DNA from: a virus
Virus genome (UHGV): UHGV-0081595
Direction: 5' to 3' (one strand)
Length of the DNA: 23,321 nt
In this document: positions 12,053 through 21,136 of the stretch, piece after piece
How positions within the stretch are numbered: the first letter of the stretch is position 1
How the letters are laid out: each line of letters starts with the position of its first letter
Notes under the pieces: generated by a model
What the model was told of the DNA's origin: nothing
Database searches by the model: none
What the model saw: only the letters and a program-made list of their open reading frames with translations
Made by a program: the position numbers and the translations under genes

Positions 12053-13089
12053 TGGGAAAGAGTAAGAAGAACCGCACTGCGGCGACGAAACAGATCCAGC
12101 TTAAAAGTCAAACTACAGCCGAAGCATTCAGCTTCGGCGATCCCGTTCCTGTTCTGGACCGCCGAGAACTGCTGGATTATGTGGAATGCGTACAGATGGA
12201 CCGCTGGTATGAGCCGCCCGTCAGCTTTGACGGACTGGCGCGCACCTTCCGCGCTGCCGTGCATCATAGTTCCCCGATTGCAGTAAAGTGCAACATTCTG
12301 ACCAGCACCTACATCCCTCACCCGCTGCTCAGCCAGCAGGCTTTTTCGCGTTTTGTGCAGGACTATCTGGTATTTGGTAACGCCTACCTGGAGAAACGCA
12401 CGAACCGCTTCGGTGAAGTTATCGCCCTTGAACCTGCCCTGGCAAAATACACCCGACGCGGGTTAGACCTGGATACCTACTGGTTTGTGCAATACGGTAT
12501 GACCACGCAGCCATATCAGTTCACGAAAGGCAGCATCTTTCATCTGATGGAACCGGACATCAACCAGGAGATCTACGGCCTGCCCGGTTATCTTTCTGCC
12601 ATTCCGTCAGCCCTGCTCAACGAGTCCGCCACGCTGTTCCGCCGAAAGTATTACATTAACGGCAGTCATGCTGGCTTCATCATGTACATGACCGATGCTG
12701 CGCAGAACCAGGAGGATGTGAACAACCTCCGCAACGCAATGAAAAGCGCCAAAGGTCCAGGCAACTTCCGCAACCTGTTTATGTACTCACCTAACGGCAA
12801 AAAGGATGGTCTTCAGATTATCCCGTTGTCAGAAGTCGCGGCAAAGGATGAATTTCTGAACATCAAGAACGTGAGCCGGGATGACATGATGGCGGCACAT
12901 CGTGTGCCGCCACAAATGATGGGGATTATGCCGAATAATGTTGGGGGGTTTGGGGATGTGGAGAAGGCAAGTAATGTATTTGTAAGGAATGAATTATTGC
13001 CACTACAGAAGCTAATAATGGAGCTTAACTGCTGGCTCGGCCACGAGATTATACGTTTTATCCCTTACAAGCTTGAAAAGGCAACTTAA
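12049..13089 (+). CDS. Q: portal (capsid vertex) protein gpQ
   Basis: 346 aa; near-colinear with remembered P2 gpQ (DYVECV...RWYEPPVSF.GLA...RAAVHHSSPI, LEPDINQE.YGLP.YLSA, NESATLFRRKYY.NG.HAG, RNEL.PLQ). Confidence 0.95.
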   Translation: MMGKSKKNRTAATKQIQLKSQTTAEAFSFGDPVPVLDRRELLDYVECVQMDRWYEPPVSFDGLARTFRAAVHHSSPIAVKCNILTSTYIPHPLLSQQAFSRFVQDYLVFGNAYLEKRTNRFGEVIALEPALAKYTRRGLDLDTYWFVQYGMTTQPYQFTKGSIFHLMEPDINQEIYGLPGYLSAIPSALLNESATLFRRKYYINGSHAGFIMYMTDAAQNQEDVNNLRNAMKSAKGPGNFRNLFMYSPNGKKDGLQIIPLSEVAAKDEFLNIKNVSRDDMMAAHRVPPQMMGIMPNNVGGFGDVEKASNVFVRNELLPLQKLIMELNCWLGHEIIRFIPYKLEKAT

Positions 13090-13173
13090 TAAAAATTCAG
13101 ATATTATAAACAAATCAATTAATAACCATATAAATAGAAAAGTCAATTGAGCGTAGCTCAACATATCGCCAGC

Positions 13174-13193
13174 AAGGCGGGCATACCCGCCTT
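13174..13193. terminator. GC-rich hairpin between convergent Q and the cargo operon; putative intrinsic terminator
   Basis: AAGGCGGG-CATA-CCCGCCTT (8-bp stem, 4-nt loop) followed by TATTAA on the plus strand; lies between the Q stop (13089) and the stop of the 234-aa cargo gene (13196). Confidence 0.45.
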
Positions 13194-13195
13194 TA

Positions 13196-13900
13196 TTAAC
13201 GAAATTCATCATTAGATAATTGCTGAATGAGGAAGTCGGAGTAAAAATCCAGATGATTAGAATCTGAATTAATAAAAGCGCTTTTTGAAAGCTCAACAAA
13301 AGAAGGTTCCCCGTAAATCAAACAATGCAACCTAACTTTATCTATATTATATTTTTTGTTAGTAAAAATACTTTCTAGCTCTAACAATGCATTTTTTGTG
13401 GAAGTTATCTCAACCGAGGCCTTGGAGTTCCCATTTAACACAACATTGCTAACTTTAATTTTATCAATATGTAATAGACTTATTGAATGCTGTAAACTTA
13501 GATAATTTATATACTCCTTTAAATTTAAGGTGATTGAACCAAATCCAACCCTATAATTGAAATCTACACTAAGTCTATCCGTCAATTTCTTTATAGATTT
13601 AGGGGGATTAAAAATAGCCAATAAAGAGAGATTTTTAGATACGGGCTTTAATGCAAATTTTATGGTTTCATACTCTAAAAAATCTTGTTCTATCTCATCT
13701 CCCGCGGGCGATACAATAACTTCTGTACGCAATGACTTTTCAACATAAGAAGCGGAAACTTCATGTTCAGTAAAATTCACAAAAGTATAACCATAACCTT
13801 TACTTTCATCATAAGAATTACGTTTAAAATAATCAATTAGTTCAGAGAAGGTTATTGATAACTTCACTCTGCTCCACTTAATTTTATCCAGTGTTTTCAT
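13196..13900 (-). CDS. hypothetical protein, third gene of the AT-rich cargo operon
   Basis: 234-aa ORF, 8 bp downstream of the preceding gene; AT-rich, Asn/Lys/Ile-biased; no motif or family I can recognise. Confidence 0.7.
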   Translation of the reverse strand: MKTLDKIKWSRVKLSITFSELIDYFKRNSYDESKGYGYTFVNFTEHEVSASYVEKSLRTEVIVSPAGDEIEQDFLEYETIKFALKPVSKNLSLLAIFNPPKSIKKLTDRLSVDFNYRVGFGSITLNLKEYINYLSLQHSISLLHIDKIKVSNVVLNGNSKASVEITSTKNALLELESIFTNKKYNIDKVRLHCLIYGEPSFVELSKSAFINSDSNHLDFYSDFLIQQLSNDEFR

Positions 13901-13908
13901 TTGTTATC

Positions 13909-14985
13909 TCACTCATACTCTTTATTAATATCCATTATAATTGAACGCGCCGTTTTTTCAATAAGTCTTTTAAAATGATATTCTTCATCATCCGGTAATT
14001 GGCTCGGATTTTTATTATATTCTCCGGCACCTTTATATTTCCTCACCCCTCTAGAAATATATGAAAAGCTCTTAAACTCTAAAGGATCACTAAACTGAGC
14101 TTCAAAATCATAAAGATCTGGAGTAGTAGATTTATCCTTTATTCTCCATCTTATTTTCCAAATATAAAACCCTCTATTATACAAAGAATTCAACTCTTCA
14201 GATTTAAGCACCCCCTCTCCTTTCAAAGATGCTTTGCTAATATGTATTCCTGTTTCAGAATCCCCATCTTCCTCCTCCATGACAGCAGGTTTAGGATGGT
14301 AGATATAAACATCCGTAACATCATCTAAAACATATCCATCCAACCCATTGATGAGCCGCTTAAAAAATTCTGTTCTTTTATCTGCGTCATCGATGTTCGC
14401 GAGGTTGATTTCTTCTGTATCTAAAGTCGTTGCTTCTATATCTTTTTCCTTTTGTATAACCTGTTCGATAATACTTAGTAGTTTTTTATTATAAATCTCA
14501 GCTTGTTCACTATCAGGCCTACGAATTGAAAAACCATCCGAAAGGGACTCGATTTCAAAAACAGCAGTTTTCTTCTCTACTTGGTTAAATTCACTTTTAC
14601 CAAAATTGGTTGATAAGTATGTAATGCTAATTTTAATAAAATCTTTATCACTGATTACATGACATATATCATCTTCGCTTTCCAGCTGATCTTTAAGCTT
14701 ATTAGCAGCCTTAACAAGTAGTGGCTTATCAATATTATTCTTAATAACTATAGCCGTAGATTTCTCTCGCCTTAAAAAACCTCCAAATATTCCAGAAATT
14801 TTCTGGTGCAAATAATAATCATGAGTGAGCTTTGAGAAATTTTTTGCTAGTTGCTTACGCTCAGTTTTTTTTGACACCAAAATTCCACGGGATAAAAACA
14901 ATTCCACCATATCATTATCAGTGACACGTGATTGGCATAAAGCCTCGTATAAAGCTTTGTCTGTAACACTGTGTATTTCACTCAT
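13909..14985 (-). CDS. hypothetical protein, second gene of the AT-rich cargo operon
   Basis: 358-aa ORF whose ATG overlaps the stop of the upstream gene (TAATG); acidic, Lys/Glu-rich; no recognisable catalytic motif, Walker box or TM segment. Confidence 0.7.
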   Translation of the reverse strand: MSEIHSVTDKALYEALCQSRVTDNDMVELFLSRGILVSKKTERKQLAKNFSKLTHDYYLHQKISGIFGGFLRREKSTAIVIKNNIDKPLLVKAANKLKDQLESEDDICHVISDKDFIKISITYLSTNFGKSEFNQVEKKTAVFEIESLSDGFSIRRPDSEQAEIYNKKLLSIIEQVIQKEKDIEATTLDTEEINLANIDDADKRTEFFKRLINGLDGYVLDDVTDVYIYHPKPAVMEEEDGDSETGIHISKASLKGEGVLKSEELNSLYNRGFYIWKIRWRIKDKSTTPDLYDFEAQFSDPLEFKSFSYISRGVRKYKGAGEYNKNPSQLPDDEEYHFKRLIEKTARSIIMDINKEYE

Positions 14986-16049
14986 TATTTAACATCCCAT
15001 GATCTTTCTTCTGTTAAATATTGCTCTCGAGATAGAGGCACAATATATAGCTCAATAGATAATAATTTTTCCTTCATAGATTCATCATATCCCCACTGAT
15101 ATGAAAATTTTTCTATAGCTTTTATAAAATTAGTCCGTATGTGCTCACTTTTATCAATACATGCTACTCTAATTCTAATATTATTTTTTGAGTTTAATAT
15201 CTGGTAGTTAGCTAGAGTATCTAATAAATAATTAAACTCTAAGTCTGTTTTACCGGAGCGGTTGTAATAAACAATAAACCCTTCAGGATAAACCAGCTCG
15301 TCCTCCTTTTTAGCTCTATTATATTCTATTACTGGACCATGTTTAATTATCATGTAGGGGGATGTTAGAGTTTCCACTGTAGCTGGAAGATATTCTTCTG
15401 CAGTCACAACCTTATGAAGTATTAATTGAGGATAATAGAACCCATAATCATCACGCGGGAATTTATTTTCCGCAATCATTTCGTTCATATCAGCAACAAC
15501 AGACATAAGATAACTAATAGTTCGTGGCTCAATTATATGTATTTGCTGATTTTCAGATACATTTACTCTGTCTAAATTAACTGCCGCAGGTCTTTTCCCT
15601 TTTTTGGGTTTAGGAGGATAAAAATAGTCATAGAAATTATGCTTATAGTCATTATCATGATTATATACAAAAAGTAACCCTCGTACTTCACTTTTAGACA
15701 TGGTTGTCTCATAGCGACTTTTCCATACCTGACTATTCTGCGCACAATGAATAGTTTTTGCTAAGGAATCTAAAGCATTTTCAACCATTTTAGAATTTAA
15801 AGACCCTTTTGAATAACTTTTCAAATCAGTATTTAGATAAACAATTTTATTTAAGTAAGGATCTTTATAATGAAAGACAATATCAACTGGATGTGTGTGG
15901 TCTTGCGTTTTTTCCGCTGGCTTGTGTAATTCTTGTTCAGTACACGGAAAATCATGATCGGTCGGACCGTGTTGCTTCCACTTAAATCTTTCCAATAGTT
16001 TATGGGACACCAGCTTCGCCAAGTCTTCACGAGGTCCGTTTTCTGCCAT
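14985..16049 (-). CDS. hypothetical protein, first gene of the AT-rich cargo operon; weak PD-(D/E)xK-like motif near the N-terminus
   Basis: 354-aa ORF with AGGAG SD ~9 nt upstream of the ATG; residues ~50-80 read HPVD-IVFHYKDPYLNKIVYLNT-DLK, compatible with a PD...(D/E)xK nuclease core; otherwise unassignable. Confidence 0.7.
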   Translation of the reverse strand: MAENGPREDLAKLVSHKLLERFKWKQHGPTDHDFPCTEQELHKPAEKTQDHTHPVDIVFHYKDPYLNKIVYLNTDLKSYSKGSLNSKMVENALDSLAKTIHCAQNSQVWKSRYETTMSKSEVRGLLFVYNHDNDYKHNFYDYFYPPKPKKGKRPAAVNLDRVNVSENQQIHIIEPRTISYLMSVVADMNEMIAENKFPRDDYGFYYPQLILHKVVTAEEYLPATVETLTSPYMIIKHGPVIEYNRAKKEDELVYPEGFIVYYNRSGKTDLEFNYLLDTLANYQILNSKNNIRIRVACIDKSEHIRTNFIKAIEKFSYQWGYDESMKEKLLSIELYIVPLSREQYLTEERSWDVK

Positions 16050-16128
16050 GATAAGATTCTCCTTTAGTTAACTAAGAATAATACTATTGAAAAATTCACA
16101 GATTCTCTAGCTTTTTAGTTAGCGCGCG

Positions 16129-16147
16129 CTCGTATCCCCGCCACGCC
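16129..16147 (-). other. putative cos site (cohesive-end sequence of the P2/186 type)
   Basis: Minus strand reads GGCGTGGCGGGGATACGAG followed by CGCGCGCT; as I recall, the P2 and 186 cohesive ends begin GGCGAGGCGGGGAAAGCAC / GGCGTGGCGGGGAAAGCAT and P2 continues TGCGCGCT. Not verified against a database. Confidence 0.55.
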
Positions 16148-16158
16148 TGCCCGCTTTA

Positions 16159-16263
16159 TGCAGTGGTTTTCATGCACCTGCATGACATGAGTAAAAGCCC
16201 GCCAGTTCTAGCAGGTCTCTGCAAAAACGATCCTCAATCGATCATGCGATTTCATGCAGCATA
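16159..16263. repeat. cluster of TCATGC(A) repeats adjacent to cos (possible terminase-binding or packaging-accessory repeats)
   Basis: TCATGCAC, TGCATGAC, TCATGCGA, TCATGCAG, TCATGCAC within ~105 bp next to the cos-like sequence, in a non-coding stretch. Confidence 0.4.
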
Positions 16264-16456
16264 GTCATGCACAGCCAAGGGAAGCGTAAATCCGTATCTG
16301 AATGACCGCTGAAAAGCGAATCATACGGGTTTACAAAGATGAAAGTCCGCTGTGAACGAGAAACGGACTATGATACTAACAAGAGAGCATCACTGTTAAT
16401 ATTTGAACAATTAATGCTCAGCTATTTATCTATTTTACAATCAGAAAGGACTTGTA

Positions 16457-16867
16457 ATGGTTACGGTTGATGAATTAAAGATGAAATATCCGGACGCGAA
16501 TGCCTGGCAAGTGGGCGACAGCCCTGAACTGGCTAACGAGCTTGCAGCACTTATCAAAAAAGGGATTAAAACGGCCTCCTGCGGCTCTTATGCCTCTTAC
16601 CAGAAGGAAGAGTTTGCCCCAAGGATTGGGAGCTATAACATCATCCTTAACGGCCAGGATGTACCTGTATGCGTGACCCGGCTGGTGTCGATGCGACTGG
16701 TGCGTTTTTGTGATGTTACTGCCGAGTTCGCTCGCAAGGAAGGTGAAGGCGATTTGAGTCTTGAATATTGGCAGAGAGAGCATCAACGATTTTTTACATG
16801 TGAAGGTTACTTTTCTGACGATATGGAGCTGATTATGGAAGAGTTTGAAGTTGTTGATGTTTTGTAA
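16457..16867 (+). CDS. ASCH-domain protein
   Basis: 136 aa; pattern WQVGDSPELANELAALIKKGIKTASCGSY...YNIILNGQDVPVCVTRLVSMRLVRFCDVTAEFARKEGEGDLSLEYWQREHQRFF matches the ASCH family signature (GxKTAT... / EGEGD-SL-YW); AAAGGA SD 6 nt upstream; only plus-strand gene between cos and A. Confidence 0.8.
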   Translation: MVTVDELKMKYPDANAWQVGDSPELANELAALIKKGIKTASCGSYASYQKEEFAPRIGSYNIILNGQDVPVCVTRLVSMRLVRFCDVTAEFARKEGEGDLSLEYWQREHQRFFTCEGYFSDDMELIMEEFEVVDVL

Positions 16868-17643: not shown

Positions 17644-20058
17644 TTAATACAGGTTCCGCCACTTATCATCTTCCCGCAAACGCTGGTTCCGATAGAAGAT
17701 ACGCAAGCCTGCTCCTGACGGAATACTGCCGCCGCGAAGGAGTAAATCGACCTCTTTCTCGCTACCATCAAATCCTCTGGACTTCAGTTCATAGACGAGC
17801 TGCTGACGCTGATACTCTGTAATTCGCTGTTTGTAGTCTTTACGTCGTTTCGGTTTAACCAGGCGTAATCTTGCTGCCAGTTCCCGGCGCTCTTTTTTGC
17901 TCATACTGTGCAGGTAATCGTGCAACTCCTTGTCATCCATGCGGGTGATATCCGTTCTGGTATCCCCATCAGCTGATTTGTCTTTCCCTTGTTGGTACAA
18001 ATTTTCAACAAGGGGACAGTTATTGCCACGAGTCCAAGGGGCGCAAGCGCCCTGGTCGGCTGCCGCCTCCTGAACGTCAACGGCTTTACGAACCATTTTC
18101 CACTTCACTGCATGAGTGCAGATCTTGCCCTCTGCAATGGGTGACCAGATGCCATAAATACGAATGCCGTGATCGCCATAGGCGGTCGGCTCTTCGTTGA
18201 TTTCATAAGCGGTTCTGATGAGGTGATATTTACGGGGAACCAGTACGCCGCCCTGCTTCATGATGTAGGTGGCAAAACAACCAGCATCAGCAGCAGCCAA
18301 GATGGCATCAAGGCGCGGGTTATCCAGTACCGGCGCACCTGCTTTTTTGTCCCCCTGTTGCCTTGCCGCCTGACCAGCCAGCAATCGCAGTTCACGGTAA
18401 GCCTGACGCCCCGGAATGCCAAAGAAGCGGAATTGCTGAACACGATGCAAAGACGCCCAGGCGTTCACGTATTCAGCGTTATCACGCAGAGATTTACCCG
18501 TTTCCTTGCTGATCTCGCCAGCCAGACCACGCCCGTCAATGTTCTTACTGATGTATTTCGCTATGTAGCTTGTCGGCGTTCCTTTGCGCGGGTTAATCAG
18601 CTCAGACTTAAAGCGCGGCCCCGTGTTATTGCCCAGCTCCTCGCGGTCTTCACGGATAGCAAACTTACGCAACAATGCAGTAATGGCGCGGCGGTCTTTT
18701 TTGCGCATGAAACACAACAGGTGCCAGTGAACTGTGCCGTCGTGATGCGGCTCAGCCACCCGCACGCCATACCAGCGCAACCCGGCTTTGTGCATCGCCT
18801 TACGAAATGCAGCAAACATACCGACCAGATAATCGCTGCTTTGTCTTACCGTCGCATTTGTCCAGGTCGGGTTGGGCCTGCCGTTATTTAGCGTGGAATG
18901 GAAACGTGACGGACAGGTGATGGTGTAGAAAACGGCGCAGTCACCGCGCATTTCCGCGATAAGCTCCAGACCTTTAACACAGGCCATCATCTCATTGCGG
19001 CGATGCGCAGGGTTGCTGCTGCTGGCGTTTACCACATCCTCCATGTCCAGCGTGTCGCCGTCTTCGTTCACCAGTTCATGAGAACGGAAAAACTCCAGCG
19101 ACTTACGGCGCTGCTCACGTTTATGCAACACGGCTTCATAGCTGACATAGGGAGATGCTTTTTTGCTGACAAGGCAGACAGCACGCAACTGCTCTTCCCG
19201 CCATTCGCAACGCATTTTCCATAATTTCCGGTACCACCAGTCGGCGCACAACATACGCGCCAGCGAACCCGGAATGAGTTCATAGGGCACGGGTTTACGG
19301 CGGTTTCTTTTCCGACGGAGTTGCTCAAACGCAGGCGGGATTACATCCAGACGCAGGGTTTCCGCTGCCACCCTTTCCCATGTATTGCGGATTTCTTCTG
19401 GCTTAACGTCATCGGTGGCATACAAATCGCCACAAGCGGCATCAAGGCACATACTCATATGCGCAGCTACCAGGGTGGACAGGCGTTTCACCTGATCCTG
19501 ACTCATTTCAGGCAGGATCAGCAGGCCGTCCAGCCCTTCATGGCTTGCCATAAAGCGAAAAGATGCAGATAGCTGACTGTCGCGTACATGCTCCAGTCGT
19601 TCCAGACATGGCTTAATCGTCTCACGTAAATAGCGGGAATAAGCCTTTGGCCTGCCAAGGCTGCTGAAGTATTCAATACGTTGCATCAGCGGCTTGCTGA
19701 TATGGGAAGGCTGGGCGTTGACGTCCGCCAGAATGACCATATCCGGATTAAAACGCTGCTGCTCATGCGCCAGCTTTGCCCGACTAATGAGCTTATCCTG
19801 TTCCATTTCGCGCTGGACAGGATCACGGGATTCATTAAAGAAATAACGCTCCCAGACCTGATCACTCAGCGCCTCACGGCGCAGCTGTTCCTGCTCGTTA
19901 TCGGCAGCGTACAGAGTGATCAGGTTTGAAAGCGTAGAAACCGGCGCAACTTCCACCGGGTCCAGATAAGGGTTAATGGCCTTTTTCGGGCTGTTCCATG
20001 AGAACGATGCGGCAGCTTCGTTAAAGCCGCAGCAGTTGTTCATATCGGCATGACTCAT
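17644..20058 (-). CDS. A: replication initiation endonuclease gpA (rolling-circle, HUH-type)
   Basis: 804 aa; [19 protein letters not shown] (HUH motif) and [12 protein letters not shown] (active-site Tyr motif) match P2 gpA; start overlaps the Dam stop (ATGA). Confidence 0.92.
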
Positions 20059-20912
20059 GCACGTACTCCGTACACGGCAGAACTATCCACGCCACGCGAA
20101 TAATCAAATCCCACCCAGCAGCGCGGCCCGGAAACAGCAATGATTTCTGTTGCTGATTTACCCTCGCCAGCTGCCACACCGATGCTGCGTTTTGCCTTGA
20201 TGTAGTGGTGAGTAAAATTGCGATACAGCGAACGGATCAGGGATGTGTCACTGTTAGAAACAATGACCGGATGTCCTTCTGATGACCGATGTTCAAGAAC
20301 AGATGCCAGGTGATACTGGTCATCTTCAGTGAAGCCGTCAGTGTGATAGCCGGAAAACGTACCGTCATACGGCGGATCGCAATACACCACATCCCCCACC
20401 TTCAACATCGCCAGCGTTTCATCAAAGCTGGCGCAGATAAACGTTGCCCGCTGGGCTTTCTCTGCAAATGCGCGAATTTCTTTTTCAGGGAAATACGGAT
20501 TTTTATAATTACCGTAGGGAATGTTGAAATGTCCGCTCTTGTTATAGCGACATAAACCACGGTAACCGTGACGATTGAGATACAGGAAATATACCGCTTT
20601 CATGAAATCAGTAATTTCAGTGGAGTAATTAAACTCCTGCCTTATGTTGTAATAAGCTACCTCCCTGTTTGCTTCCTCAAATAAAGCTCTGGCACGAGAT
20701 ATAAACGCCTCACAATCAGCAGCAACCTTTTTATAGAGGTTGATTAAATCAGGATTAATATCCGCAACAAGATAGCTGGGGTAATCCGTCTCCATCATCA
20801 CTGCACAGGAACCCGCGAAAGGTTCAACCAGTCGCGGGCCAGCAGGAAGATGCTTTTTCAGTTCGGACATTATGGCGGTTTTATTTCCTGCCCATTTCAG
20901 GATGGTGCTCAT
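20055..20912 (-). CDS. dam: Dam-family DNA N6-adenine methyltransferase (GATC-type orphan MTase)
   Basis: [29 protein letters not shown] and VVYCDPPY motifs align with E. coli Dam; start at the internal ATG ([11 protein letters not shown]) preceded by a GGAGGTG SD rather than the track start at 20972. Confidence 0.88.
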
Positions 20913-21136
20913 ACAGCACCTCCGTTGTAATGTTTGCCTTTCAGCTCTGCGATTTCCTGGCAGGTAATGCAAAGCTGCACTCCCGGAATGGCGCGGCGTC
21001 GTGCTGGCGGAATTGGCGCTTCACATTCAATACAAAGCACGCGAGACACGCCCGGTGTTTTGGCACGGGCAGCACGAATATGGCGCTGGCGTTCTTCTTC
21101 AACGCGCTGCTGTACGAGATCCATTGCATCAGCCAT
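20909..21136 (-). CDS. TraR/DksA-family C4 zinc-finger protein
   Basis: 75 aa with CIEC-x17-CITC four-cysteine finger and basic flanks; typical small early-region protein of P2-like phages. Confidence 0.75.
   Translation of the reverse strand: MADAMDLVQQRVEEERQRHIRAARAKTPGVSRVLCIECEAPIPPARRRAIPGVQLCITCQEIAELKGKHYNGGAV

Follow-up and report, generated by a model that had tools for sequence, protein, structure and literature searches.

A predicted PD-(D/E)xK nuclease related to GAPS4a in the three-gene Rst_3HP locus of a P2-like prophage

Three adjacent, co-directional genes were found on the minus strand, between positions 16049 and 13196, of the window (the whole 23,321-nucleotide stretch of virus genome UHGV-0081595 that was analysed). 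The first encodes Hp1 (14985-16049, minus strand), a 354-aa predicted PD-(D/E)xK nuclease effector from a sister family of GAPS4a. It is followed by Hp2 (13909-14985, minus strand; 358 aa), which has an RdgC-like predicted fold, may bind or sense DNA as a ring and is the probable counterpart of GAPS4b, and by Hp3 (13196-13900, minus strand; 234 aa), a fast-evolving third subunit in which neither a recognisable domain nor a GAPS4 counterpart was found. The genes are tightly packed: the stop codon of Hp1 and the ATG of Hp2 overlap by 1 nt (TAATG) and Hp3 starts 8 nt past the stop of Hp2. A terminator-like hairpin picked up by a consensus scan (13146-13162, minus strand), 34 nt past the Hp3 stop, is a candidate for the end of the operon. 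Promoter-like sites within the cargo were no commoner than in shuffled sequence and therefore no promoter is claimed. The three PADLOC models for the Rst_3HP system match here in the same order and orientation (Hp1 2.7e-62, Hp2 1e-39, Hp3 3e-14), making the locus a member of that system. All three proteins also match PHROG families of unknown function, with Hp1 assigned to PHROG 7059 (1e-126) and Hp3 to PHROG 5850. When genomes were scanned, taking one per species, the order Hp1-Hp2-Hp3 on a single strand was seen at 74 of 80 loci, the other six being truncated by contig ends or frameshifted. Of 5426 complete E. coli genomes, 5 carry the cassette itself at an identity of at least 99%.

The flanks of the cassette are of P2 type, with terminase and portal genes upstream and a DinI-like gene, a GPA replication protein and a Dam methylase downstream. 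Rst_3HP occupies this same site in P2-like prophages, with the portal gene on one side and the cos/replication region on the other. At 30-35%, the GC content of the cargo (region 13000-16250) is lower than the 50-60% of the phage backbone, which is consistent with recent horizontal acquisition. An idea taken from a preprint is that such AT-rich cargo could be silenced by H-NS. A 19-mer at 16129-16147, whose reverse complement is GGCGTGGCGGGGATACGAG, is unique in the window and resembles the cohesive end (cos) of P2/186-type phages. Many P2-like phages and prophages share ~90% identity over approximately 150 bp around it (conserved stretch 16119-16273), and the 3HP operon starts only ~80 bp from this cos-like site. 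The explanation of the locus as a whole, namely that the 354-aa protein is Hp1 of Rst_3HP, carried as low-GC cargo in a variable hotspot of a P2-like prophage, and is the PD-(D/E)xK nuclease effector of the system, is one in which we have good confidence.

From the model names and the description we infer that Rst_3HP (3HP for '3 hypothetical proteins'), the name used by detection tools, is the three-gene P2-hotspot system of Rousset et al. (2022, PMC9122126), which was described as having 'no clear predicted domain' and as protecting against P1. P1 was the sole phage blocked by 3HP in the published panel (Rousset et al. 2022, PMC9122126), and a 2024 survey keeps Rst_3HP as unclassifiable. Rst_3HP is an experimentally validated defence system, and naming its putative effector opens it to concrete and cheap experiments. 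A precomputed Pfam match to PF26115 is recorded for an identical protein (P0001) and for all 120 homologues, and UniRef names these proteins 'GAPS4 PD-(D/E)XK nuclease domain-containing protein'. In two of the five E. coli genomes above the RefSeq product is 'PD-(D/E)XK nuclease domain-containing protein'. With Pfam and RefSeq already carrying the call, the nuclease assignment is not a discovery of this work. The literature searched contained no nuclease call for 3HP, no explicit link between 3HP and GAPS4, no RdgC-like fold for Hp2 and no description of 3HP as a GAPS4 system extended by a rapidly evolving third subunit.

The first-pass annotation of this DNA, made from the sequence alone, had proposed a possible PD-(D/E)xK core in the N-terminal part of the 354-aa protein. 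Residues 51-81 of Hp1 read HTHPVDIVFHYKDPYLNKIVYLNTDLKSYSK. The segment H53-K77 (15819-15893, minus strand) contains H53-P54-V55-D56 as motif II and D75-L76-K77 as motif III, and the codons of H53 to K77 run from 15893 to 15819 exactly. The motif sequence and its coordinates were thus as annotated, but the first acidic residue was misnumbered: given as D55, it is D56, position 55 being a valine. D56 (codon 15882-15884, minus strand) is the predicted metal-binding aspartate and the counterpart of D59 in GAPS4a. D75-L76-K77 (codons 15819-15827, minus strand) is the predicted (D/E)xK motif, lying in strand 3, and is the counterpart of S79-V80-K81.

A motif this short could be fortuitous in a protein rich in lysine and aspartate, as the same annotation had warned, in which case Hp1 would be unrelated to nucleases. 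The frequency of the motif was measured in 5000 composition-preserving shuffles of Hp1. The loose pattern D-x(10-30)-[DE]-x-K, which occurs four times in Hp1, was present in 96% of the shuffles. A version containing P-x-D was found in 36% and one demanding hydrophobic strands in 17%. With the bare pattern in 17-96% of shuffled sequences the motif is not beyond chance, and the caution was justified. A local Pfam-A scan of Hp1, Hp2 and Hp3 also returned no meaningful match, and hence no nuclease match for Hp1, from a copy that possibly lacks PF26115. What counts the motif as non-random is its conservation across Hp1 homologues. A search of 5.8 billion proteins gave 250 relatives, and the 118 close, full-length homologues show no variation at H53, P54, D56, D75, L76, K77 or S78. 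When 1.84 billion cluster representatives were searched exhaustively with a profile, 501 clusters were recovered. For 140 of these 50%-identity clusters the representatives, whose identity to the query is 25-45%, were aligned, and H53, D56, K77 and C102 are the sole invariant columns of the whole of Hp1. Position 75 is D in 139 of these 140 representatives and E in the remaining one.

Structure prediction points the same way. An AlphaFold2 model of Hp1 built from 85 sequences (pLDDT 90.4, pTM 0.88) has, in its N-terminal half, a helix at residues 5-20, strands at 25-27, 57-63 and 68-79, a helix at 86-105 and a strand at 120-130, which is the alpha-beta-beta-beta-alpha-beta core that, with its central mixed sheet, characterises the PD-(D/E)xK superfamily. 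In this superfamily the textbook sites of motifs II and III are the start of strand 2 and strand 3, respectively. In the Hp1 model D56 stands immediately ahead of strand 2 (57-63) and D75-x-K77 lies within strand 3 (68-79). The check by structure prediction that had been suggested for the annotation thus returned a restriction-endonuclease-type core in the N-terminal half, with motifs II and III at their canonical places. From the secondary-structure positions and from homology, D56, D75 and K77 would be expected to cluster in space, and the predicted active site is made up of these three residues, probably joined by H53 and E3. The core belongs to an N-terminal nuclease domain (15471-16049, minus strand; residues ~1-193). 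It is followed by a C-terminal domain (14985-15470, minus strand; residues ~194-354), also found in GAPS4a, for which no structural match covering residues ~194-354 was found and which may be a docking domain.

A Foldseek search with the Hp1 model was in agreement, though less strongly, giving Hachiman HamA at a probability of 0.95, with every E-value above 0.001. PDB sequence searches with Hp1, Hp2 and Hp3, singly and as profiles, gave no match under an E-value of 0.4. Both HamA and SduA of Shedu are PD-(D/E)xK effectors activated by DNA ends or aberrant DNA, but neither has a sequence-level relationship to Hp1. The partner proteins also differ: HamA is paired with the helicase HamB, SduA has no partner, and here the partners are the RdgC-like Hp2 and Hp3.

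Hp1 is related in sequence to GAPS4a, one of the two proteins of the GAPS4 system (Mahata et al. 2024 and 2025). The sequences of GAPS4a and GAPS4b used here are those of Mahata et al. 2025 (bioRxiv 10.1101/2025.09.07.674715). An hhalign profile comparison that set seven GAPS4a sequences against the Hp1 family gave a probability of 98.1% (E 7.9e-14) over 256 columns, spanning Hp1 residues 1-296, and the homology extends over the whole protein, both domains included. In the profile alignment E3 of Hp1 pairs with E4 of GAPS4a, W24 with W26, C36 with C37, H53-P-x-D56 with H56-G-x-D59, D75-L-K77 with S79-V-K81 and C102 with C109. Invariant positions common to both are E3/E4, W24/W26, C36/C37, H53/H56, D56/D59, K77/K81 and C102/C109. 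The aspartate of motif II matters in GAPS4a, where defence is lost on its replacement by alanine (D59A, or D49A in the E. coli homologue; Mahata 2025, bioRxiv 10.1101/2025.09.07.674715). The motif of Hp1 is the canonical H-P-x-D ... D-x-K, whereas that of GAPS4a is a non-canonical H-G-x-D ... S-x-K, which is absent from the Hp1 family. The NCBIfam model GapS4a (NF047933) hits Hp1 with 40.5 bits (E 1.9e-10), far short of its curated cut-off of 270 bits. Across the Hp1 family 73 of the 140 representatives match this model, the best at E 3.4e-14 and none reported above the cut-off. Membership of Hp1 in GAPS4a itself was considered and is ruled out by the score far short of the cut-off, the different motif III and the different operon. 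Hp1 is a sister family of GAPS4a that has the canonical acid of motif III where GAPS4a has a serine.

No other kind of effector is as common in bacterial immunity as the PD-(D/E)xK type. That Hp1 has this fold and is the catalytic effector of the system we regard as highly probable. The AlphaFold2 model, the conservation, the fold comparison and the GAPS4a alignment all contradict a fortuitous motif in a protein unrelated to nucleases, a reading to which almost no weight is now given. Residue conservation, AlphaFold2 topology and homology to GAPS4a thus bear out the core that had been proposed from the bare sequence.

Two cysteines, C36 and C102 (with H42 and H53; codons within 15744-15944, minus strand), are conserved in the Hp1 family and, as C37 and C109, in GAPS4a. 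Judging from the sequences, C36, H42, H53 and C102 could form a candidate structural metal site beside the active site. C36, H42 and C102 might also join H131 in a Zn site.

The similarity to GAPS4 continues into the gene downstream, since Hp2 and GAPS4b are of similar length, show weak collinear similarity and share a ring-type fold, which in Hp2 is a predicted one. The model of Hp2 has an RdgC-type fold. RdgC, lambda RexA and Iml3-Chl4 belong together by fold, as non-specific DNA binders shaped like a ring or a horseshoe, but Hp2 has no sequence match to RdgC: it gave no match in Pfam, the RdgC family included, and its profile matched no PDB sequence. Only one of 81 Hp2 homologues matches NCBIfam GapS4b (1.1e-5). 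When Hp2 was aligned with GAPS4b by hhalign as a single sequence, the match was confined to the N-terminal 41 residues (E 0.015). Against four GAPS4b sequences the probability was 19.5%, and a broader Hp2 alignment gave a collinear match with a probability of ~22%. Full-length collinear alignments of Hp2 with GAPS4b had E-values of 2e-4 to 1e-3. The link between Hp2 and GAPS4b is, by sequence comparison, no more than suggestive. The published complex is an a2b2 heterotetramer of GAPS4a and GAPS4b whose ring is built from the two GAPS4b subunits (Mahata et al. 2025), and the RdgC-like fold predicted for Hp2 fits this arrangement.

Not every restriction-endonuclease fold cuts DNA. Some CdiA-CT toxins of the PD-(D/E)xK type are RNases or tRNases, and the fact that some PD-(D/E)xK proteins cleave RNA counts against a firm DNA substrate for Hp1. 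Hp1 could accordingly have the fold and yet be no DNase, acting as an RNase or tRNase or as a non-catalytic DNA-binding module. However, the homologous GAPS4 system degrades DNA in vivo and the partner Hp2 resembles a protein that encircles dsDNA. Moreover, the D...D-x-K triad is kept family-wide, including the aspartate at position 75, and this argues against a non-catalytic role. Such a reading is therefore considered very unlikely.

The third gene sets 3HP apart, for Hp3 is obligatory in 3HP whereas GAPS4 consists of two genes (a and b, separate or fused). Three GAPS4 loci were inspected, one on an IMG/VR viral contig and two on plasmids of Pantoea alfalfae and Ewingella americana (L082, 3001-5025; L083, 1567-3643; L084, 1585-3658). 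Each contains just two overlapping genes, and a Hp3-like third gene is absent from all three, with only unrelated genes or no sizeable ORF downstream. The GAPS4a alignment varied too much to serve for scanning by pattern, and no further GAPS4 loci were obtained with a Klebsiella-type query against viral contigs or an Aeromonas-type query against metagenomes. Hp3 itself had no match in Pfam or the PDB or in profile comparisons with Hp1, Hp2 and GAPS4b. The Hp3 family was built from the 80 genome loci (L002-L081), a word-indexed homologue search having given only three relatives. A Pfam scan of 57 of its members returned scattered noise only, and the alignment has no invariant column, a loose DPFG ... 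PPRS pattern being all that recurs. Median identity to the proteins of the window, taken over the 74 complete loci, is 42.6% for Hp1, 37.1% for Hp2 and 22.7% for Hp3, and at each of these loci Hp3 diverges most. On the grounds that it has no GAPS4 counterpart and evolves fastest, Hp3 may be a regulator or specificity factor, a proposal that we rate as evenly balanced between right and wrong. The corollary drawn in the first-pass annotation, that the two other proteins would be sensors or regulators if the first were the nuclease, agrees for its part with the DNA-binding fold modelled for Hp2.

These features of Hp3 could also be read as those of an antitoxin, and this is the main rival reading. 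A constitutively competent nuclease made of Hp1, with Hp2, would be held in check by Hp3 until a phage protein or host shut-off freed it, and DNA ends would not be sensed at all. The fast evolution of Hp3 at every complete locus is what would be expected of a direct arms-race partner, and its lack of a GAPS4 counterpart and its position as last gene of a tightly packed operon fit as well. A published spectrum limited to P1 would likewise suit a specific trigger. However, at 234 aa Hp3 is large and bears no similarity to known antitoxins, the two-gene GAPS4 is tolerated without any such inhibitor, and the RdgC-like fold of Hp2 points to DNA sensing. We consider a toxin-antitoxin-like arrangement unlikely.

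The reading preferred here follows GAPS4, which responds to DNA breaks or linear DNA by degrading the DNA of phage and host alike (Mahata et al. 2025). By analogy we infer catalysis, a DNA substrate, complex formation, the trigger and a role of Hp3 for 3HP. By homology to GAPS4, two RdgC-like Hp2 subunits would encircle DNA as a ring or horseshoe, and Hp1 would dock on this dimer. DNA ends, DNA breaks or aberrant phage DNA would activate the Hp1-Hp2 complex, which would then degrade DNA non-selectively. The infecting phage would be stopped in this way, and the cell might be lost as well. Hp3 would modulate the complex, either as a brake on the nuclease or as a sensor of a phage factor, that is, a specificity subunit. 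That 3HP works in this GAPS4-like manner, triggered by DNA ends or breaks, is plausible but somewhat short of an even chance. The published spectrum is broad for GAPS4 but restricted to P1 for 3HP, and this, together with the obligatory third gene, means that the trigger of 3HP may differ from that of GAPS4.

A more specific proposal is that 3HP is a three-component derivative of the DNA-break-sensing DNase GAPS4 in which Hp3 gates the complex of RdgC-like ring and nuclease. We offer it tentatively, and as it stands it is doubtful. If true, one possibility is that gating by Hp3 lets a phage with a linear, cos-ended genome carry a nuclease triggered by DNA ends without destroying itself. Alternatively, Hp3 would re-target the system to particular phages such as P1. 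In either case there would be a new regulatory layer on a sentinel of DNA integrity, and a first role as immune sensor for a protein of the RdgC fold. The link between 3HP, GAPS4 and RdgC suggests a wider family of DNA-integrity-sensing nucleases built on an RdgC-like ring, in two- and three-gene forms.

A few observations concern other genes. DS-36 always co-occurs with Rst_3HP in Erwinia. It comes from another screen (DefensePredictor), whose paper draws no link to this locus, and it was set aside as a candidate. Within the window, a D12-class Dam methyltransferase (20055-20972, minus strand), next to the replication gene A on its upstream side, and a DksA/TraR-type zinc-finger protein (20909-21136, minus strand) are ordinary accessory genes of the P2 family. 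On the other side of the cos-like site from the operon lies a gene for a 136-aa ASCH-domain protein (16457-16867, plus strand; Pfam 1.4e-22). The equivalent position in other E. coli prophages holds a gene annotated 'restriction endonuclease', and so the position of the ASCH gene looks like a second variable cargo slot.
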